NCBI GenBank assembly: GCA_012512325.1
Contig: JAAZEL010000038.1
Span: 10,518-74,517 of the forward strand
Length of the DNA: 64,000 bases
Reading direction: 5' to 3'
DNA from: Candidatus Fermentithermobacillaceae bacterium
GTDB lineage: Bacteria > Bacillota > Sulfobacillia > Fermentithermobacillales > Fermentithermobacillaceae
A program made the position numbers and the translations under genes. How positions within the stretch are numbered: the first letter of the stretch is position 1; every line of letters begins with the position of its first letter. The notes beneath the pieces were generated by a model. It had not been told where the DNA came from and did no database searches. It saw nothing but the letters and a program-made list of their open reading frames with translations. Shown here in pieces: positions 52,253-63,162 of the stretch.

Positions 52253-52392
52253 GCCTTACGGGTGTGCCGGCCTTACGGGCGTGTCGTGTCGGGCCCTGCG
52301 GCGGTGCCGGGCCCCCCGGCTGTACCGGCCCCTATGGCTGTGTCGGACCCTGCGGCTGTGCTGGCCCCTACGGCTGTGTCGGACCCACGCAG
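52253..52392. repeat. 18-nt tandem repeat (SCCYNNGGCTGTGYYGGM), about 7 copies, upstream of comFC
   Basis: gccttacgggtgtgccgg / ...gccctgcggcggtgccgg / gccccccggctgtaccgg / cccctatggctgtgtcgg / accctgcggctgtgctgg / cccctacggctgtgtcgg / accc... All six frames stay open across it, which produces the spurious track ORFs. Confidence 0.65.
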
Positions 52393-54079: not shown

Positions 54080-54706
54080 TCAAACGCCCAAGGCAAACAC
54101 AAAGACGGCAGCCGCTACCTCCCGGCCTGCTACGAATGCCTTTCCCCGTGCCCTGCATACGTTCATGCGCAAAGGTTCGACCTCCACTTCAGCGCGCAGG
54201 GTGTCACCGGGCTTCACCGGCTGCTTGAACCGGGCGTTTTCAATCGCAGCCAGATAGGCCGGCTTGCCCCTGCGGCCCGGTTCGGACAGGACGGCCAAAG
54301 CAGCGGTCTGCGCCATCATCTCCAGGGTAATCACGCCGGGGAACACAGGCTCCTGGGGGAAATGCCCCCGGAAGAGCACATGATCTCTGGGGACATCGTA
54401 TTCAGCCACAGCCCATCGGCCCTGCTGTATGCTTATTGCGCGGGTCACAAACAGAAAGGGCGGCCGGTGCGGGAGGATGTCCGTGATAGGGGTAAGGCTT
54501 TCGCATCCGTTAGCCAGGTCAGGAGGCTTCGTACTATCGTGGCACGGATGACTCGTGGTATCCCGGCATGGAGGGTTCGCCTTATCGTCGCACGGATGGT
54601 TCGTGCCGTCCCGGCATCGATGGTTCGTGTTATCTTTTCGAGGAGGGTTGGCATTATCGTGGAATGGAAGGTTCATATTATCACGGCATCGGGCTTTCCT
54701 GTCCAT
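54080..54706 (-). CDS. fabZ: 3-hydroxyacyl-[ACP] dehydratase FabZ, possibly with a repeat-containing N-terminal extension
   Basis: The C-terminal about 145 aa are FabZ (ILPHRPPFLFV...HFPQEPVFPGVITLEMMAQT...). No in-frame ATG directly precedes the hot-dog domain. The nearest credible start is the ATG at 54706 (MDRKARCRDN..., GGGAG 9 nt upstream), which gives about 60 aa of octapeptide repeats. The track ORF to 54982 overlaps the flgJ-like gene. Confidence 0.65.
   Translation of the reverse strand: MDRKARCRDNMNLPFHDNANPPRKDNTNHRCRDGTNHPCDDKANPPCRDTTSHPCHDSTKPPDLANGCESLTPITDILPHRPPFLFVTRAISIQQGRWAVAEYDVPRDHVLFRGHFPQEPVFPGVITLEMMAQTAALAVLSEPGRRGKPAYLAAIENARFKQPVKPGDTLRAEVEVEPLRMNVCRARGKAFVAGREVAAAVFVFALGV
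54526..54693. repeat. 24-nt tandem repeat, 7 copies (GGTTCGTGNTATCNNGGCANSGAN)
   Basis: Units at 54526, 54550, 54574, 54598, 54622, 54646 and 54670. Spans the fabZ 5' region and the last codons of the flgJ-like gene. On the minus strand it encodes about 7 times an 8-aa T-N-H-P-C-R-D-x unit. Confidence 0.7.
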
Positions 54707-55001
54707 CCTCATCATCTCCCGGCAAGTCGCTGGGAGATGATTTCGACAGTTGGTCATAAAGCACCTTCGCCAGGCCGATTCCTCCTCCTTGGGCCCACAC
54801 CTGTCCCATGGATTGGGACATGAGCACGTCCCATGGCCCAAGGTCCACGCCTGCATTCTTGGCCATGTTGCGCCACAGGATTGTGAGAAACAGGGACTCA
54901 AATTCACGGCAAGCTTCAGCCAGTTTGAGATCTTGCTTATCCTGGTTTGAACCTGCAACTCTGGCCAAGCTGTAAGGTACAATGCTTATGTGGTTGTCCA
55001 T
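54681..55001 (-). CDS. flagellar rod-binding (FlgJ N-terminal-like, Rod_binding domain) protein
   Basis: 106 aa. ...LAEACREFESLFLTILWRNMAKNAG...GGGIGLAKVLYDQL matches the rod-binding domain pattern. Sits downstream of the rod genes. Confidence 0.6.
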   Translation of the reverse strand: MDNHISIVPYSLARVAGSNQDKQDLKLAEACREFESLFLTILWRNMAKNAGVDLGPWDVLMSQSMGQVWAQGGGIGLAKVLYDQLSKSSPSDLPGDDEDGQESPMP

Positions 55002-55189
55002 ATGTCATGTCCCTTCCGCATCGATTCCGTATGAACAATCAGAGCCTCATTACTCATTGTCCGCATCGGCCATCTCATTATCCTCTCATTGTCCTCATCA
55101 GCTATCTCATTACCCTCATCAGTCTCATTGCTTTGTCTTCATAGGCATCTCATGGTCCTGCATTCGATCCCGACGTGGAATTGTGAGGT

Positions 55190-55951
55190 TTAGCGCCTTA
55201 TACTGTTTGCAATGGCCCACATCTGATCGGCTGTCTCCACCGACTTGGAGTTAAGCTCAAAAGCCCGCTGGGCGATAATCAGGTTCACCATCTCAGACAC
55301 GATTTCTACGTTGGATTTCTCTATGTAACCTGACAAGATAGTGCCCGAACCCTGCTGGCCGGGCTGCACTTCAATCCCTTGCCCCGACTGAGGGGTCTCT
55401 CTGTACAGATTCGAACCTATTGCGTGCAAGCCTGCGGGATTAGGGAACATGGTAATCACAATTTGCCCAAACTCCTCGAAAGCGCCGCCTATCCTGGCCC
55501 GGATTACGCCTTCCTCATCTATGCTTATCTCCTCGGCCTCGGGGGGAATCCTGCTTCCGTTTCTCAACCTCACGAGATGGCCGTTGGCAGTCACCAACCT
55601 GCCCTGGCTGTCCAGCCTGAACGAACCGTCCCGGGTGTAATAGTCGTTGCCGTCAGGACCGGCTATGGTGAAGAAGCCCTGGCCCTGAATAGCCAGGAAC
55701 AGGGGATCGTCCGCCGGCTCAAGAGCGCCCTGCCCGAAGTCCCTGTAGGTGCCTGCCACACGCACCCCGCTTCCTACCGAAGCCAGACTGTTCCTGCCCA
55801 CCAGGATGTTCTGATAGTAGAGGTCCTGGAAGTCCACCCGCTGTCTCTTGAAGCCCAGAGTGCTCACGTTAGCAAGGTTATTGGAGATGTTGTCTATGTT
55901 GAACTGCTGGGCCGTCATGCCCGTCGCACCGGACCACAGAGCTCTTATCAT
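55190..55951 (-). CDS. flgG: flagellar basal-body rod protein FlgG (FlhP-like)
   Basis: 253 aa. N-terminal ...GMTAQQFNIDNISNNLANVSTLGFKRQ and a C-terminal rod domain ...NVEIVSEMVNLIIAQRAFELNSK. Confidence 0.85.
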   Translation of the reverse strand: MIRALWSGATGMTAQQFNIDNISNNLANVSTLGFKRQRVDFQDLYYQNILVGRNSLASVGSGVRVAGTYRDFGQGALEPADDPLFLAIQGQGFFTIAGPDGNDYYTRDGSFRLDSQGRLVTANGHLVRLRNGSRIPPEAEEISIDEEGVIRARIGGAFEEFGQIVITMFPNPAGLHAIGSNLYRETPQSGQGIEVQPGQQGSGTILSGYIEKSNVEIVSEMVNLIIAQRAFELNSKSVETADQMWAIANSIRR

Positions 55952-55976
55952 TCCGGTCTACCTCCCTCATCTACAC

Positions 55977-56150
55977 GCTTCCTATTTTTGCATGCTGCCT
56001 ATTCCTGCGCGCTTCCTGTTTCAGGCTAGCTTCCTATTTTTGCACGCTTCCCGTTTCCTGCTAGCTTCCTATTCTTGCACGCTTCCCGTTTCCTGCTAGC
56101 TTCCTATTCTTGCATGCTTCCTGGTTCTGCACGCTTCCTGTTCCTGCCGG
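55977..56150. repeat. about 36-nt tandem repeat (gcttcctattcttgcacgcttcccgtttcctgctag), about 4-5 copies, upstream of flgG
   Basis: Copies at about 55977 (degenerate), 56029, 56065 and 56101. The minus (mRNA-sense) strand is rich in GGAAG/AGGAA motifs. Confidence 0.65.
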
Positions 56151-56206
56151 TTCCCGCCCCTACATGCTCCATATTCCTGCACGACTCCTGGAAGGCTGCT
56201 CCGCAA

Positions 56207-56944
56207 CTACACTCTTCCAACCCGGTTCACAGCTTGCTCCAGGGTCTCATCGTGGGAACGCAATGCCCGCTGGGCAGCTTCGTATACCCTCATTGATGTA
56301 ATGAGGGCTACCATTTCAGACACAGGGTCCACCGTGGACTTCTCAAGCACCCCCACCAGCACCCTGGGAGACTCAATCTGGGTGGCGTATCCTCCGATCA
56401 GCCTAAGAAGGCCGTTACCCTCTTTCTCCAACTCATAGTCTCCTGAAAACGAGAAAACCGACAGGCTGTCCACCGTTTCATCGTCAGCGACTACGCTCCC
56501 GTCGTCGGAAATGCTGTAGACCTTGCCTGCCTCAAGGGCAATGGGGCCGCTTGTGCCCAACACCCTGTATCCGCCCACTGTGAGGCAACCGTCCATGTCC
56601 CTGAGGTTGCCCATACGCGTGTACCTGGTGCCTGCAGGAGTCTCAACGGCCAAGTAGGTACCCTGGGGCAAGGCAATGTCCAAAGGCCTGTGGGTGGTCT
56701 CAAGCCCGCCTACAAGGTCCATGGTGGCAATATCGTGAAGTACCGTTCCGCTGGAAAAACCTCCGATGGCTGTGTGGGACAGGCTCTCGAACCTGTACAT
56801 CAGCGCATCGTGGAAGCTCTGAAACACCACTTTGTCCTTTTGATACGCTACGGTGTCCACATTGGCCAGGTTGTTGGCGATCACTTCCTGGTTGAGCACC
56901 TGAGCCCTCATGGCCGTAGCGGCAGACAGAATGCCTTTGATCAA
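56207..56944 (-). CDS. flgF: flagellar basal-body rod protein FlgF (FlhO-like)
   Basis: 245 aa. ...AQVLNQEVIANNLANVDTVAYQKDK... and C-terminal ...DPVSEMVALITSMRVYEAAQRAL. Confidence 0.8.
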   Translation of the reverse strand: MIKGILSAATAMRAQVLNQEVIANNLANVDTVAYQKDKVVFQSFHDALMYRFESLSHTAIGGFSSGTVLHDIATMDLVGGLETTHRPLDIALPQGTYLAVETPAGTRYTRMGNLRDMDGCLTVGGYRVLGTSGPIALEAGKVYSISDDGSVVADDETVDSLSVFSFSGDYELEKEGNGLLRLIGGYATQIESPRVLVGVLEKSTVDPVSEMVALITSMRVYEAAQRALRSHDETLEQAVNRVGRV

Positions 56945-57049
56945 GTAAAAATCCCCCTTGAAGTTTTATCGGCCAAGGGCTCAAACGTATTAGGTGTCTG
57001 AGGAGGAAATGGTTTATTGCAAACAGACCCAGCACCCAATGGTCAGAGT

Positions 57050-57230
57050 CAGACCATCCATCGTGGCGATCTGGATATTTCGGGCAAGGTAGTCGTTACC
57101 CTGCAAAGGCCTTCGCAGCTCAGGCCATACATCGTGGCAATCTGAACATTTTCGGGCAAGGTAGTCGTGACTCTACGGTAGCCTTCGCAACTTAGACCAT
57201 ACATCGCGGTAATGCGGTAATCCGGTCATT
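57050..57230. repeat. about 71-nt direct repeat, about 2.4 copies (atcgtggcRatctgRayatttYcgggcaaggtagtcgt...ccttcgca...cat)
   Basis: Copy starts at about 57060, 57131 and 57203 (partial), read from the sequence. Confidence 0.65.
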
Positions 57231-57431
57231 TCCGGACCGGTATAGGACCGGGTCTGTGGGGGCTAATCTGAGACCGGTTTTGGTACTGCACCGGCCAAGA
57301 GGCTACCGGATGTTGCAGGAGACCGGCCAATCCCAGACCAGGTTCCGACCAAATCCTGACACTCCGGTCGATCTCAAACCAGCTTGGCTCTCGAGTTGGT
57401 CAGAAGCAGGCCAGCCGCGCCGTAGAATGGC

Positions 57432-57950
57432 CAATTCCAGACCAGATCGGGGACCGGATCCGAGCACTCTGGCCAATCTCTGACCAGTCCGACTCCCGAA
57501 GTGGTCAGAATGGAACCAGATGTCGCCGTGATCTGGTCAATTCGAGACCAGACCATTGACCGGATCCGAGCACTCTGGCCAATTTCTGACCAGTCCGACT
57601 TCCGAAGTGGTCAGAATGAAGCCAGATGTCGCGGTGATCTGGTCAATTCGAGACCAGACCATCGACCGGATCCGAGCACTCCGGCCAATTTCTGACCAGT
57701 CCGACTTCCGAAGTGGTCAGAACGGAACCAAAAGGCGGGGCAACCTGGTCAATTCCTGGCCGGTCCCCGGTCAAACCGGAGAACTCTGGTCAATCTGAGA
57801 CCAGGCTCATCAGTTGAAGTGGTCAGATACAGACCAGGTTTCGCGCAAAGCCGGTCAATTCATAGCCAGACCCAAGACCGAAACCCAAGATCCTGGCCAA
57901 TTCCTAACCGGTTCCGATGCAGAAGTGGTCAAATCGAAGCCAGGCGAGGT
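57432..57950. repeat. about 96-106-nt tandem repeat, 3 near-identical copies (57432..57725), then degenerate copies to about 57950. Recurring words: ctggtcaattc, ggccaattt, gaagtggtcagaa
   Basis: The anchor ggatccgagcactc recurs at about 57466, 57562 and 57668. ccagatgtcgcSgtgatctggtcaattcgagaccagacc recurs at about 57516 and 57622. No ORF longer than 80 codons on either strand. Confidence 0.7.
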
Positions 57951-58982
57951 CTAACCGGTGAGACTTTCGATGTGCTCCCTGTAGAGGTTAAAGTTCTCCA
58001 AGGCCGCGATGGTACCTCTTGCCACACACGAAATGGGGTCTTCAGCCACATGGACCGGCAAGCCGGTTGCATCCCTTATAAGCTGGGTTATGCCTTTCAG
58101 AAGGGCTCCGCCTCCTGTAAGCACGATGCCTTTATCGATGATGTCGCCCAACAGCTCAGGTGGGGTGCGGTCCAATACCTGCCTTATGGCGTGACAGATC
58201 AAATCGAGGGGTTCCCTCAGGGCGACCCTTATGTCTGCGGAACTCACTGACACGCTCCTGGGAAGTCCTGTAATGGCGTCCCTGCCCCTGACCTCATACC
58301 TGGTTTCTTCGTTTGCTTCAGGGTGGGCCGACCCTACTGCTATCTTTACTTCCTCCGCAGTGGATTCGCCAATGAAAAGGGTGTATTCCCTGCGCATATG
58401 TCTTATGATGGCCTCGTCGAACGCATTGCCGCCCACGCGGGTGGAGGCGCCTGTGACTATCCCGTTGAGGGAAAGCACGGCGATGTCAGTGGTTCCTCCT
58501 CCGATGTCCACAACCATATGGCCTTTAGGAGCAGTGATGTCTATACCCGCCCCCAGAGCAGCGGCGAGAGGTTCTTCAATGAGGTATACCTTCTTACCTC
58601 CTGCTGCCAGCCCTGCTTGGAGCACCGCCCTCCGTTCCACTGAAGTAACCGCAGCAGGTACACATAAGAGGAGTGTGGGCTTAAACACCAAGGTTGAACC
58701 GAGGCTCTTGCGCAAGAAGTACCTGAGCATTATCTCAGTGACCTCGAAATCATTGATCACGCCCTCCACCAGAGGGCTTACGGTCACAATGCTTCCAGGC
58801 GTCCTGCCGACCATTCTCCTGGCCTCTGTGCCTACCGCCAAAACCTCTTTGGTTTCGACATGCCTGGCTATCACTGAAGGCTCTCTTAGGACGATGCCTT
58901 TGCCTGATACGAACACCAAGACGGAGGAAGTTCCGAGGTCAATTCCTACATTCCGGCCACCTATCACGCTAAGCCACCCCAC
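57951..58982 (-). CDS. mbl: rod shape-determining actin homologue, MreB/Mbl family
   Basis: 343 aa. ...NVGIDLGTSSVLVF..., DIGGGTTD and other actin-fold motifs. Adjacent to spoIIID as mbl is in B. subtilis. Confidence 0.9.
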   Translation of the reverse strand: MGWLSVIGGRNVGIDLGTSSVLVFVSGKGIVLREPSVIARHVETKEVLAVGTEARRMVGRTPGSIVTVSPLVEGVINDFEVTEIMLRYFLRKSLGSTLVFKPTLLLCVPAAVTSVERRAVLQAGLAAGGKKVYLIEEPLAAALGAGIDITAPKGHMVVDIGGGTTDIAVLSLNGIVTGASTRVGGNAFDEAIIRHMRREYTLFIGESTAEEVKIAVGSAHPEANEETRYEVRGRDAITGLPRSVSVSSADIRVALREPLDLICHAIRQVLDRTPPELLGDIIDKGIVLTGGGALLKGITQLIRDATGLPVHVAEDPISCVARGTIAALENFNLYREHIESLTG

Positions 58983-59402: not shown

Positions 59403-60302
59403 CTAACTGCCGTCGCTTGTGAATGCCGCAGGGTCCACTGCTTCGCCGTCCTCGAACAGTTCAAAACGGAGGATGTCCCCTTCGGTCCTTCCGATGGTTT
59501 CTCCCCTGGACACCTGTTGCCCGGGGACCGGGCCCGGAGCGGACACTCCCGCATAACGAGTCTCATACCTGTCTCCGTGGTCGATTACGATCACCAGGCC
59601 GACACCCTCGTCCCGGTAAACCCGCTTGATCACCCCTGACCCGGCAGCCTTCACCTCTGCCCCGGGTTCGGCTGAGATGGCCACTCCCGGGTAGTAACGC
59701 CAGTCGCCCAGTTCTTCTGAGTAGCCCCAGCCGGGCCGTTTTATAATCTGCCCTGAAACCGGCATTATGATTCCGTACGGATCGAAAGCTGGGACGGCCT
59801 GGTTGTCCTCACCCTGGCTGTCCCGTGAATCCTGGTCGGGGGCCCTCGCGCTGCCGTGGGTCACCTGGTCCGCATGCCGGTCTGTAAGTTCCTGCCTGCT
59901 CTCAGTGGTACCGGTTGCAGTACCCACGGATTCCGTTCCGAACCCGTCCGTTCCCGATCCGTCTTTCATGTCTTCGTTGCCGGGCAGCTGGATTCGACCG
60001 TCGAGCACCTCACCTGGGTGGGGGTCATAGTCCTGTGAACTCCCTGTGTCGTGCGCGTTCCACCCGGAAGCCGGCGCCTCGAGGAAACTTGCCCGCAGCC
60101 CGAGGAAAATTCCTAAACTGAACAGGGCGATGCAACCCGCGACGATCAAAAGCCCTTTGAAGGCGCTCCTGAAGCGCTTTGACCTCTTAAGTCGCCTGAG
60201 GGTGTTATAGTCACTTCCCAGTGTGAAGTACTTGAGTCTTGATTTTCCCCTCAACCCCTCGGAAGTCCGGTTGTCCTGACCCCTGATGTCATCCGCCTGC
60301 AT
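59403..60302 (-). CDS. membrane-anchored M23/LytM-domain protein (SpoIIQ-like by position)
   Basis: Start at the ATG at 60302 (MQADDIR) with RBS GGAGGTG. TM helix GLLIVAGCIALFSLGIFLGL, a low-complexity linker, and a C-terminal LytM domain (...VIDHGDRYETRYAG...). Confidence 0.65.
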   Translation of the reverse strand: MQADDIRGQDNRTSEGLRGKSRLKYFTLGSDYNTLRRLKRSKRFRSAFKGLLIVAGCIALFSLGIFLGLRASFLEAPASGWNAHDTGSSQDYDPHPGEVLDGRIQLPGNEDMKDGSGTDGFGTESVGTATGTTESRQELTDRHADQVTHGSARAPDQDSRDSQGEDNQAVPAFDPYGIIMPVSGQIIKRPGWGYSEELGDWRYYPGVAISAEPGAEVKAAGSGVIKRVYRDEGVGLVIVIDHGDRYETRYAGVSAPGPVPGQQVSRGETIGRTEGDILRFELFEDGEAVDPAAFTSDGS

Positions 60303-60541
60303 AACAACACCTCCGGCGGATAGTATTGACATAATTTGGAGGAAACATGCAAACACGCGTCGGGCGTCGGGATGACCGGAAGGACGCGATTCGCCCGCAG
60401 GTGGCGGCCGCCCCTAGACAAAAGGCATGCTGCAATGGTTTCATTTATTCTCTGAAGAGCAGGTTCTATGGCAACCAGAGCAATTACTGGATAGGACCGC
60501 ATAGAGATAGGTCATTCCACGACTATGACTCTGGATAACAG

Positions 60542-61528
60542 TTATTCTTCGAAGATATGCGACACCTGAGTACCGGGGTAGTAGTTGGCAAGAATCTCGA
60601 GGAAGTCCATGCCTGCCCTGGCTGCGCCGTCAGCCCCGTACTGGCACAGGCCTACTCCGTGGCCGTAGCCAGAAACCTGGAACACGATGTTCTCACCCTG
60701 TACTGACCAGGTGAACTTGGTGGACTTGAGGCCCAAGGCTGACCTAAATTCCAGCCCCCTTACGGTCTTGCCGTCTACTGAAATTTGCTTCACCCTGCCT
60801 GTGGGAGACAAGGAGGTGACGGCAATGACCCCTTTCTGCGACACCTTTGAGGCTGGGACGGCGATTCCAAGGCTCCCCATGGAACTGGATATCTGAGTCG
60901 CGGACAACACGACTTTGGAGATCTTGTAGTGAGGTGACGAAGCGCAGTAATTGCAGGTCACGCTTTGTAGATAATCCACATCCTTACCCCAAACATCCTT
61001 TGCGGCTTCGGTGGCTCCGCCGCAGGTAGAATGGTACACCGACTCGGCAGGCAGCCCCTTGTAAGTGAGAATCAGCCCCTGGGTTTCTCTCACCGCCTTT
61101 TCTATCTTGGGCCAGTTCAGCCACCATCCGATAGTCCCCCAGCGTTCTTTGAGCACATGTTCGGGATTCCACGCCTGGTCCTTGGCAGGGTTCGATGTAA
61201 CATCGGCTTTTCCGGGCATAGACGGTGTGCCGCCAAAGATTTGCATCTTGCGTAAGGCATAGGTCCTGGCAATCACGGCCTGGGCCTTGAGAGCCTCTGG
61301 GTGGAAAGATGCGGGCATTTCAGAAGCTACCACATGCTTCACGTACTCTTCCAAGTCCATGCTTATCACTTTGTCTTCAGGTTCGTAGTATACGTCTATC
61401 CTGAGGAACGGATAACCGGCGGCCGGCGTTTGAGGCATCTTGGGCTGTTCGACGGGGCCAGGTGCACCGCTTGACAGCCCTGCCAGCAAGCCAAAAAGGA
61501 ATAACAAGAAAAAGAAGGCCTTTTTCAT
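60542..61528 (-). CDS. spoIID: stage II sporulation protein D (SpoIID/LytB domain)
   Basis: 328 aa. Signal peptide, then SpoIID-domain sequence ...YHSTCGGATEAAKDVWG... Confidence 0.85.
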   Translation of the reverse strand: MKKAFFFLLFLFGLLAGLSSGAPGPVEQPKMPQTPAAGYPFLRIDVYYEPEDKVISMDLEEYVKHVVASEMPASFHPEALKAQAVIARTYALRKMQIFGGTPSMPGKADVTSNPAKDQAWNPEHVLKERWGTIGWWLNWPKIEKAVRETQGLILTYKGLPAESVYHSTCGGATEAAKDVWGKDVDYLQSVTCNYCASSPHYKISKVVLSATQISSSMGSLGIAVPASKVSQKGVIAVTSLSPTGRVKQISVDGKTVRGLEFRSALGLKSTKFTWSVQGENIVFQVSGYGHGVGLCQYGADGAARAGMDFLEILANYYPGTQVSHIFEE

Positions 61529-61756
61529 GGTGACTGCCTCCGAAGACCCTTTGTTGATTAATATTGGGAAGCGGAGGCATTTATTCTTGTCGAAGGGGCA
61601 TGATATCGAGATGTGTCTGGACGACTGTCAATATCGGGCTGGCTACACTGGCTACACATAGCCGGCTGCACATGGCCAGAGCACATGGCTGGCTACACTT
61701 GGGTAACGGAGCACCTACATGTGAACACATCAGGTGACGGTAAAGCGTCGCGAAAC

Positions 61757-61835
61757 ACCACATCTTCACTGACGCGACAGGCCGACGGTCACTATCTTCA
61801 TTGACACGCAACACCACATCCTCATTGACGCAGGC
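61757..61835. repeat. about 29-nt direct repeat, 3 copies (CACCACATCYTCAYTGACGCR), in the spoIID-murA intergenic region
   Basis: caccacatcttcactgacgcgacagg / cactatcttcattgacacgcaacac / caccacatcctcattgacgcagg. ggctggctacac also occurs twice, at about 61638 and 61688. Confidence 0.55.
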
Positions 61836-61875
61836 TTGGCAGTCGGGTTGGCCGTGGGGCACCGGAGCATTAGCA

Positions 61876-63162
61876 TCACGGGATGAACCCTGAGGCTTGT
61901 TCCATGGCTTCATCGAAAACAGCAATCCGGGCGCCCAAGGAGCGTAGCTTCGAGGCGAAGCCGGCGTAACCCCTTTCCAGGTGCTCAAGCCCGGTAATGT
62001 AACTCACGCCCTGGGCGGCAAGGGCTGCCAGGCACAGGGCAGCGCCTGCCCTCAAGTCCGTGGCTTGTAGAGTAGCCCCGGTAAGCTGGGGTACCCCTTC
62101 GATCACCGCATTGGAACCTTCAATGCGGATCTTGGCCCCCATACGCCTGAGCTCTTCAGCATGGGCAAACCTGTTTTCAAACACGGTTTCAGATATGAGG
62201 CTGGTACCTTGGCCTAAACTCAACAGGCTCATGAACGGGGCTTGGACATCAGTTGGAAACCCCGGATACGGCAGGGTCTTTATGTTCACAGGGTGGGCCC
62301 TTGACGATGAGCTTATCTCTATGCTCTTGTTCCATTCGGCCACGTCAAACCCGCACTCCTGGAGCTTGGCCAGAACGGATTTCAGATGCAGGGGAATCAC
62401 ATTGCCCACAGTTACGCTCCCCTGGGTAATCGCCCCGGCGATAAGATACGTGGCCGCTTCGATCCTGTCGGGGATGATGCTGTACGTCGTGCCCCTGAGC
62501 TCTCTTACTCCATGGATCCGTATCCTCGGCGTGCCGGCTCCTTTTATGCTTGCACCTGCGGAATTCAGAAAATTCGCTAAATCTACAACCTCAGGCTCCT
62601 GGGCTGCATTGTCTATCACAGTCTCCCCGTGGGCAAGACACGCTGCCATCATGATGTTTTCAGTGGCTCCCACGGAAGGCACATCCAGGTAGACTTGGGC
62701 CCCATGGAGCCTGGGCGCACCGGCGTGGACATAGCCTTTTTCTATGGATATCTCGGCGCCCATCGCTTGGAACCCTTTGAGGTGGAGATCCACGGGCCTT
62801 TGGCCGATGGCGCACCCTCCCGGAAGAGGTATCACGGCTTTGCCGCACCGCACCAGAAGCGGGCCCATGACGAGGAAAGACGCCCGCATCTTGCGGACAA
62901 GGTCGTACGGAGCTTCGTGGACCAGAGGCCCTGGGGCACTCACGGAGATCCTGTCCCGGTCTTGGGTCACATGGGCGCCCACCGCACCCAAGAGCTCAAC
63001 CATGGTCCTTACGTCGGCCAAATCAGGCACGTCAAAAATGGCAGCACTATCCATAAGAAGTGCGCCCGCCAGTACCGGCAGGGCGGCATTCTTGGCGCCG
63101 TCACAACGTACTTCACCTCGGAGCGGCTGTCCACCCCAAATTACAAGATTTTTCATATCCAC
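61876..63162 (-). CDS. murA: UDP-N-acetylglucosamine 1-carboxyvinyltransferase
   Basis: 428 aa. ...LVIWGGQPLRGEVRCDGAKNAALPVLAGALL... and the active-site Cys region. Confidence 0.95.
   Translation of the reverse strand: MDMKNLVIWGGQPLRGEVRCDGAKNAALPVLAGALLMDSAAIFDVPDLADVRTMVELLGAVGAHVTQDRDRISVSAPGPLVHEAPYDLVRKMRASFLVMGPLLVRCGKAVIPLPGGCAIGQRPVDLHLKGFQAMGAEISIEKGYVHAGAPRLHGAQVYLDVPSVGATENIMMAACLAHGETVIDNAAQEPEVVDLANFLNSAGASIKGAGTPRIRIHGVRELRGTTYSIIPDRIEAATYLIAGAITQGSVTVGNVIPLHLKSVLAKLQECGFDVAEWNKSIEISSSSRAHPVNIKTLPYPGFPTDVQAPFMSLLSLGQGTSLISETVFENRFAHAEELRRMGAKIRIEGSNAVIEGVPQLTGATLQATDLRAGAALCLAALAAQGVSYITGLEHLERGYAGFASKLRSLGARIAVFDEAMEQASGFIP

Follow-up and report, generated by a model that had tools for sequence, protein, structure and literature searches.

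A species-specific, non-coding tandem array of short palindromes between mbl and flhO in Candidatus Fermentithermobacillaceae

Anatomy of the repeats in the mbl–flhO gap

The window analysed here is a stretch of 64,000 nucleotides from a Candidatus Fermentithermobacillaceae bacterium (assembly GCA_012512325.1, contig JAAZEL010000038.1), and positions are those of this 64-kb window unless another contig is named. Its minus strand carries mbl, of the MreB/Mbl family (57951..58982; Pfam PF06723, E 2.9e-134), and downstream of it a flagellar rod gene of the flhO/flgF type, here called flhO (56207..56944; PF06429 and PF00460). The gap between the two genes, 56945-57950, holds two sets of long tandem repeats, whose anatomy, distribution and possible role are considered below. 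A preliminary description of the gap had stated that no open reading frame (ORF) of more than 80 codons lies in it, and this was borne out, as the longest ORF encodes 80 amino acids (57556-57798, plus strand). The recurring words listed in that description (ctggtcaattc, ggccaattt, gaccagtccgac and gaagtggtcagaa) were all found again. It had also proposed two repeat units, both of which needed adjustment. The shorter one, given as 71 nt in about 2.4 copies, is a real repeat, which Tandem Repeats Finder (TRF) sets at 72 nt in 2.3 copies with 80% matches (57049..57213), beside the flhO promoter; it was also recovered by a direct-repeat search. The longer one, given as 96-106 nt, does have three near-identical copies, but its unit is 106 nt, there are about seven units, and they decay in both directions.

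For this longer unit TRF reports 3.1 copies of 106 nt at 57428-57755 with 89% matches, and a 212-nt row reaches 57827. When the sequence was laid out in 106-nt rows and aligned with MAFFT, the array extended over about seven units, from 57216 to 57950, where it abuts the mbl stop codon. Unit and subunit tables show that the array is homogenised in the middle and degenerate in its outer units. The three central units (57428..57745) have pairwise identities of 83-90%, the two outer units on the mbl side are 45-63% identical to the central ones, and the two units on the promoter side align to the others only with gaps.

Every 106-nt unit is itself composed of three subunits, a, b and c, with a spacing of 42/32/32 nt. 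At the centre of each subunit is an 18-bp motif, YGGYCA-N6-RRCCRG, which is an imperfect palindrome (as in CTGGTC-N7-GACCAG, 19 nt with 6-bp arms). Allowing at most one mismatch, this motif has 25 matches in the whole window, all of them inside 57040-57943, compared with 3.7 +/- 2.3 expected in the shuffled window, and none of 100 shuffles reached 25. Moreover, subunits b and c are inverted to each other and together form a 33-nt hairpin with 14-nt arms that are 86% complementary. It is present in each central unit, for example at 57690..57722 (TTCTGACCAGTCCG...CGAAGTGGTCAGAA), where both the inverted-repeat search and minimum-free-energy folds recover it. The 5' part of the 72-nt unit is 63% identical over 32 nt to the junction of subunits c and a, so the 72-nt repeat is probably a derivative of the same repeat complex.

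The array is not a clustered regularly interspaced short palindromic repeat (CRISPR) locus, as had already been proposed from the near-identity of adjacent copies. The stretches between the motifs are themselves repeated, the 83-90% identity of the central units applies to whole units with these stretches included, and no cas domain was found in the window.

Reproducibility between assemblies

Contigs that encode identical FlhO and Mbl proteins were retrieved from NCBI, ENA and Logan and come from several projects. The metagenome-assembled genome (MAG) GCA_050952145.1 (L001) matches the window at 99.7-99.9% identity over 18 kb and at 99.6% in the array, and contains the same array with the same three near-identical central units. 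The metagenome contig LSQX01242832.1 (L003) has the same outer units and a run of N inside the central repeats, which leaves its copy number open. L002, with a coverage of 1.9x, has indels within one central unit. The Logan contig L067 has one central unit fewer; this could be assembly collapse, so copy-number variation is not established. In the contigs L068-L076 only the outer units were reached, since short-read contigs typically stop inside the array, and the order of these units matches. In all, the array was found in every assembly of the host species.

Broken contigs and runs of N inside the array (L003, L067-L076) are what one might expect if the repeats were a product of assembly. Against this, the same order of diverged and near-identical units appears in L001 and in the short-read assemblies of several projects. 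The probability of an artefact is practically nil; this explanation is rejected and the array is genuine. Collapse of the repeats in an independent assembly, which had been put forward as a way to overturn the preliminary description, did not occur in L001, the shortened L067 notwithstanding. The suggestion that the repeats are a recombination-prone minisatellite held in so far as the structure is a higher-order tandem array, but the two strains of 99.7-99.9% identity have the same copy number.

The array does break short-read assemblies at the mbl–flhO locus, and it coincides with chimeric contigs. Two Logan contigs (L065 and L066, from ERR6170086 and ERR6189698) encode FlhO proteins 99% identical to that of the window and have a gap of only 101 nt, and were considered as a near-identical strain free of the array. 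Up to about position 1390, in the middle of flhO, they are 100% identical to the species of L009, the closest relative, and beyond it 100% identical to the species of the window. They are assembly chimeras of two co-occurring sister species, and the FlhO cluster P0001 (99% identical) is therefore an artefact as well.

The gap in related genomes and the flhO promoter

On the basis of FlhO homologues, with one genome scanned per species, the host was placed in Ca. Fermentithermobacillaceae, an uncultured Bacillota lineage (DTU015) of anaerobic digesters. The gene order murA ... mbl-flhO-flhP-orf106-fabZ-metK ... flgM-flgN-flgK is common to the family loci examined in detail. Yet in all 25 family genomes in which mbl was located (L009-L034 except L022 and L032, plus L055), the mbl–flhO gap measures only about 45-170 nt and none of them carries the array at this site. 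In L009, whose FlhO is 90% identical, the gap is 101 nt. The mbl of the window is 92% identical to the mbl of array-free relatives.

What is conserved in the gap is its promoter end. We aligned the last 90 nt upstream of flhO from 14 species of the family and found TAA ... CGATA ... GGGG ... TG to be invariant. These bases belong to a promoter of flhO-flhP on the minus strand, CTAAT-N15-GCCGATAA (56966..56993), which we take to be of the sigma-D/sigma-28 type from its likeness to the consensus TAAA-N15-GCCGATAA, to the ribosome-binding site AAGGGGG (56953..56959) and to the TTG start codon of flhO (56944-56942). The repeat block stops about 40 nt upstream of this promoter, and the homology between the window and L009 resumes at the same distance. 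Since the gaps of the relatives are short and the homology with L009 resumes near the promoter, about 915 nt (roughly 57036-57948) are a gain in the lineage of the window, located precisely between the stop codon of mbl and the promoter of flhO. The conserved order mbl-flhO-flhP can do without the array, because every relative examined lacks it.

A second, diverged locus of the repeat family

A pattern scan of metagenomes gave 80 hits, nearly all of them due to chance, and led to two JGI (Joint Genome Institute) contigs, L119 (from a contig of 119 kb) and L133 (from one of 598 kb). In these, and in the Logan contig L157 obtained later, a 560-nt ORF-free gap downstream of an amidohydrolase gene contains the motifs at a 32/32/41 rhythm (L119 2330-2900, equal to L157 2585-3155, and L133 4560-4854). 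A hidden Markov model built from the seven units of the window gave nearly full-length matches in this gap, with E values of 2.8e-7, 1.2e-6 and 1e-3. The second array is strongly diverged: identities among its units are 33-54%, and TRF does not recognise it as a repeat, but the phase of 105-106 nt is kept. Relative to its flanking genes, this array runs in the opposite direction to the array in the window.

The nearest relatives of the amidohydrolase are Fermentithermobacillaceae proteins, and its exact sequence is absent from NCBI sources, so the organism is probably a different species from the MAG of the window. With a diverged array of the same unit thus present at an unrelated locus of a second family member, the repeats form a dispersed family. 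Neither the remainder of the window nor about 330 kb of the relatives' loci yielded a further copy of the unit, none was found in viral contigs, plasmids and phages, and the orthologous amidohydrolase loci of other species (L158-L164) contain no unit of the 106-nt family. Two other motif-rich candidates, L092 and L147, proved to be AT-rich sequences with unrelated simple repeats of 11 and 19 nt (TTGGTCAAAA and similar). Of the proposal that the array is the remnant of a dispersed repetitive element, the dispersal is supported by the second locus; the word remnant fits poorly, since central units so similar to each other point to recent amplification or homogenisation.

Coding potential

The preliminary description had left room for a protein-coding frame hidden by sequencing errors, and the region might also be a decayed gene or encode small peptides. 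The 72-nt repeat gives this idea some substance. Its length is divisible by 3, its copies 1 and 2 differ mostly at every third base when read on the minus strand, five of the seven changed codons are synonymous, and the frame reads a 24-residue repeat, MYGLSCEG(Y/L)(R/C)RVTTTLPE. But the variant of strain L004 shows two synonymous and five non-synonymous changes in this frame (counted by eye), no ribosome-binding site precedes the ATGs, and the peptide had no match elsewhere among the sequences compared. We treat the synonymous bias between the two copies as chance. In the 106-nt array there are stop codons in all frames, the unit length of 106 cannot be divided by 3, and independent assemblies give the same sequence. 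A homologue of the 80-aa ORF was sought among 5.8 billion proteins, also as a means of finding further arrays in spuriously called genes, and none shares any words with it. A coding origin is thus extremely improbable, and it is rejected.

Folding, covariation and a possible role as RNA

A structured non-coding RNA had also been suggested. In this explanation the array would be co-transcribed with mbl as a structured 3' untranslated region or intercistronic spacer, where it could block exonucleases, be cut by RNase III, uncouple mbl from flhO-flhP, or serve as a sponge for an RNA-binding protein. Co-transcription would agree with the terminator scan, which found no site like an intrinsic terminator after mbl, the only such site lying inside flhO. 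The central 328 nt of the sense strand fold at -160 kcal/mol (z = -6.9), with a hairpin of 13-14 bp in each unit, but the antisense strand folds almost as well (-142 kcal/mol, z = -6.2), and both strands fold strongly because palindromic DNA would do so in general. No covariance model of Rfam 15 matched either strand of 55500-58500 at E<=1.

Next, 31 motif instances from both loci were compared. In the 6-bp motif hairpin 77.4% of the cells are paired, against 75.8% after shuffling (85 of 500 shuffles reach it), and the covariation score of 0.162 against 0.133 (reached by 45 of 500) is not significant beyond column composition. The G-U asymmetry is weak, about 15 against 8, and comes from non-independent copies. 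The sense strand has about twice as many GGA triplets (22 against 11 in 742 nt), but these are not conserved in the outer units. A CsrA sponge was considered on these grounds and dismissed, since the three sense GGA of each unit are lost from the outer units and mostly paired. A likeness of CTGGTC-TCGAATT-GACCAG to the T-arm of tRNA was unsupported by ARAGORN, and a scan of the window for tRNA and transfer-messenger RNA returned nothing.

The reversed orientation of the array at the second locus favours a DNA element over a cis-acting RNA. Repetitive extragenic palindromic (REP) sequences that follow a gene are believed to function at the RNA level (PMC3733652), which lends the idea a precedent. 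On balance we consider a dedicated RNA role unlikely, and less likely than the phased array of protein-binding sites that is discussed in the following section; the suggestion of a structured RNA found no support.

Conservation of the motif arms and of their spacing

In the diverged units the 6-nt arms of the motif keep 77-82% identity, compared with 56-58% for the loops and 44-50% for the spacers (Fisher p ~1e-9 to 1e-22, a contrast that the motif-anchored alignment inflates). The left half of the motif also conserves bases beyond the palindrome (GGYCAATT). Together with the absence of covariation, this extra conservation points to a constraint on sequence rather than on structure. The spacings of 42, 32 and 32 nt, which sum to 106, are close to four, three and three helical turns, although only two of them are independent. 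Taken together, the arms and the spacing point to a constraint on sequence and distance, not on the hairpin, and a protein recognition site, of a transposase-like enzyme spreading the element or of a host DNA-binding protein, would give such a pattern.

These observations keep alive the main rival to the explanation that we prefer below, namely that the array is a set of phased binding sites for a regulator, a nucleoid-associated protein or a centromere-type protein. Some 18 copies of the motif would then face the same side of the helix and build up a nucleoprotein complex just upstream of the flhO sigma-D promoter, comparable to sopC or to integration host factor (IHF) and gyrase at bacterial interspersed mosaic elements (BIMEs). 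The contrast between arms and spacers, the conserved GGYCAATT, the near-integral helical spacing, the rhythm kept at the diverged second locus and the variable orientation relative to genes, which would fit a role at the level of DNA, can all be read in this way. sopC of plasmid F consists of 12 repeats of 43 bp, each with an inverted-repeat site for SopB. Like sopC, the array has tandem direct repeats with a short inverted-repeat motif at a spacing of whole helical turns. Unlike it, the array is chromosomal, has no adjacent gene of the ParB/SopB or ParR type, and shows no similarity to plasmids or phages.

Several points tell against such a binding array. Neither locus encodes a candidate binding protein beside it, and the neighbours are housekeeping genes. 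The 25 relatives with a measurable gap all use the same promoter without an array. The phasing is drawn from the two independent spacings, and the comparison of arms with spacers from the motif-anchored alignment. In addition, none of the known operators compared by eye fits both sequence and spacing; these were the direct GGTCAAA repeats of CtsR, CIRCE (controlling inverted repeat of chaperone expression), the Spo0A box, CodY, the GntR/DasR-type TGGTC-TA-GACCA, SpoIIID, attC and dif. We regard a phased protein-binding array as rather improbable, yet as the strongest of the alternatives.

Comparison with known repeats and interpretation

One close likeness is to REP sequences, which are extragenic imperfect palindromes of 20-40 nt that often stand in close pairs of opposite orientation, and to their composites. 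As in the REP/BIME-2 clusters of enterobacteria and in the REP doublets forming hairpins (REPINs) of Pseudomonas, the array is made of short imperfect palindromes and is intergenic between co-directional genes (PMC3733652, PMC3116915, PMC6749651). Its inverted b/c pair makes a longer hairpin, as in REPINs, what has multiplied in tandem is a composite unit of about 100 nt, as in BIME-2, and the repeat family occupies more than one locus. In other respects it departs from them. Most REP families have an unpaired GTAG or CGTC tag at one end (PMC3733652), whereas the motifs here have no such tag; they are flanked by GATC/ACCA, ACTC/TCCG and GAAG/ATGT, and their arms are only 6 bp long. GTAG occurs once in the array (57422-57425) and is not kept in the other units. 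REP families are dispersed over the genome in high copy number and have an associated gene for a REP-associated tyrosine transposase (RAYT), flanked by the repeats. Of the present family one locus lies in the window, one in the other species and none in the approximately 330 kb of relatives, and a scan of about 50 ORFs of the window gave no RAYT gene. We do not claim membership in the REP family proper. To our knowledge, REP-like elements have not been described in this uncultured Bacillota lineage.

The array also resembles the long-unit satellites of prokaryotes, for instance the transposed families of Leptospira interrogans, being non-coding with a unit that exceeds 30 nt and whose length cannot be divided by 3 (PMC6749651). 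It has a related array elsewhere, and satellites are clustered in one region, as in C. difficile (PMC6749651). It consists of head-to-tail non-coding copies that are reproducible between assemblies, and can be classed as a non-coding satellite or minisatellite. Unlike those satellites, it has three palindromic subunits in each unit, and its family is common to different species instead of being confined to one genome. Bacteria rarely have long-unit non-coding satellites, and even more rarely transposed families of them: the survey of Subirana and Messeguer (2019) found such families in one bacterial species among 119 bacterial genomes, and a 100-nt satellite family exists in E. coli (PMC6749651). 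The statement of the preliminary description that arrays of this kind are rare agrees with this survey. 

A further comparison is with mycobacteria. Their mycobacterial interspersed repetitive units (MIRUs) are dispersed intergenic tandem repeats of 40-100 nt in operon-like strings. They are oriented with the operon, and their short ORFs overlap the flanking stop and start codons and couple the translation of the flanking genes. The array shares with MIRUs its intergenic place in an operon-like string and a dispersed family, but its frames are closed and its orientation varies.

Overall, we lean somewhat towards regarding the array as a lineage-specific, non-coding, REP/BIME-like palindromic satellite, which entered this site by insertion, grew by tandem amplification and is probably selfish or neutral. 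The data show its anatomy, its non-coding nature, its species specificity and the second locus; the insertion with later amplification and the absence of a dedicated function are what we infer here. In this account, a copy of a palindromic repeat circulating in Ca. Fermentithermobacillaceae would have landed between the mbl stop codon and the flhO sigma-D promoter, and the 106-nt block of three subunits would then have been amplified in tandem by slipped-strand events or unequal recombination. The centre of the array would stay homogenised while its edges decay, which is the usual pattern of unequal exchange and so fits the account. The array would most likely persist as selfish or neutral DNA, with an effect on the host that is probably nil or incidental. 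At most, as a side effect, about 900 nt of hairpin-forming DNA could dampen read-through or alter mRNA stability.

Some of the data sit less comfortably with a satellite of this kind. The diverged units keep their arms far better than their spacers, and the 105-106-nt phase survives at the second locus despite the low identity of its units, which looks like constraint, something not expected of a purely neutral satellite; a transposase or another protein recognising the arms could explain it equally well. No transposase or RAYT gene was found in the window, and the palindromes are without the tags of most REPs. Only two loci of the family are known, so mobility would have to be read from distribution. 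Finally, the presence of the array in every assembly of the species fits neutrality or usefulness alike.

Flanking genes, neighbouring gaps and other repeats of the family

According to Pfam and the gene calls of L001, the genes of the minus strand follow the order murA (61876-63162), spoIID (60542-61528), a gene for an M23 peptidase (59403-60356), spoIIID, mbl, the gap, flhO/flgF, flhP/flgG (55190-55951), fabZ and metK. The scan of about 50 ORFs of the window revealed no domain of a transposase, RAYT, integrase, cas or partition gene. A sigma-70 promoter scan gave no promoter-like site, and the GC skew shows no switch within the window.

Within about 6 kb of the window, between 52.2 and 57.9 kb, TRF detected six arrays, whereas the corresponding region of 25 of the 26 relatives gave none. 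In the cluster at 52.2-61.9 kb the intergenic regions show a 2- to 9-fold expansion when compared with the four closest relatives. The flhO-flhP gap is 290 nt in L001 and 255 nt in the window (41-126 nt in these relatives), and the flhP-orf106 gap (about 54983-55189 in the window) is 188 nt in L001 (20-49 nt). The other three, again as measured in L001, are the murA-spoIID gap (61529-61875 in the window) with 347 nt (72-110 nt), the spoIID-M23 gap (60357-60541) with 239 nt (18-87 nt), and the orf116-comFC gap (near 52286-52386) with 148 nt (26-72 nt). Four of these five expanded gaps have short repeats of their own (for example GTCAATGARGATGTGGTGTT, GTGTAGCCAGC, AATGAG-rich sequences and 18/36-nt units); no repeats were found in the spoIID-M23 gap. 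A 35-nt array neighbouring the main array has one extra unit in L001 compared with the window, although the two strains are 99.7-99.9% identical. The five other local arrays and this copy difference indicate that local tandem amplification is active in this lineage and characterises both it and this stretch of the genome.

Three further observations concern repeats of other kinds. In the flhO-flhP gap (55952-56206, minus strand as sense), directly upstream of the flhP ribosome-binding site, a 17/35-nt array has about ten (A/C)AGGAAGC words, one every 17-18 nt. Its 255 nt contain 20 GGA and 13 AGGA (4.3 +/- 1.9 AGGA in shuffles), a density that resembles CsrB-type CsrA sponges; csrA-fliW lies about 8 kb downstream, and relatives have few such motifs. 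In the fabZ ORF (54080-54982, with a 48-nt repeat at 54535-54634), about 85-160 residues, depending on the start codon, precede the FabA-like domain. This extension is rich in Cys, Pro and Asn, is repetitive (e.g. NPPCRD) and aligns in the closest relatives with 50-57% identity, so it may be genuine and not the result of an over-long ORF call.

Another Fermentithermobacillaceae MAG, GCA_964641455.1, has intergenic regions of 400-900 nt (L158 12636-13190 and 4290-4650; L159 6932-7441). They contain two 53-nt tandem arrays of up to about ten copies, unrelated to the 106-nt family, with a higher-order period of 158-159 nt. These arrays carry palindromes (TGGTACAC-CTG-GTGTACCA and GGCTC-N7-GAGCC), and their unit of 53 nt has half the length of the 106-nt unit. 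Palindromic satellites may therefore be more widespread in Fermentithermobacillaceae.

Significance

REP/BIME arrays of about 100 nt have long been known (PMC3733652, PMC3116915), and the array represents a type of bacterial satellite that is uncommon but can be recognised. In the core regions of bacteria one seldom finds long non-coding tandem arrays, and this case adds an uncultured lineage of digesters, in which the array could serve as a strain-typing marker for its host. It offers a comparison of before and after, with 25 relatives that lack the array at the site, as well as a second, diverged locus, and it is notable for motif arms and a spacing that are conserved while the spacers drift. 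If the dispersed family is confirmed, it would represent a REP/BIME-like system in Bacillota. A bolder idea, to which we assign only a small probability, is that the arms of YGGYCA-N6-RRCCRG mark protein-binding arrays of a kind not previously described, located on the chromosomes of this family, which would insulate or regulate adjacent promoters. The arrays with periods of 53 or 106 nt (the window, L119 and L158/L159) would then nucleate a nucleoprotein complex, and here the flhO sigma-D promoter would be affected. If the array does bind a protein or shape the transcription of the flagellar rod genes, it would be an example of a satellite recruited into regulation.

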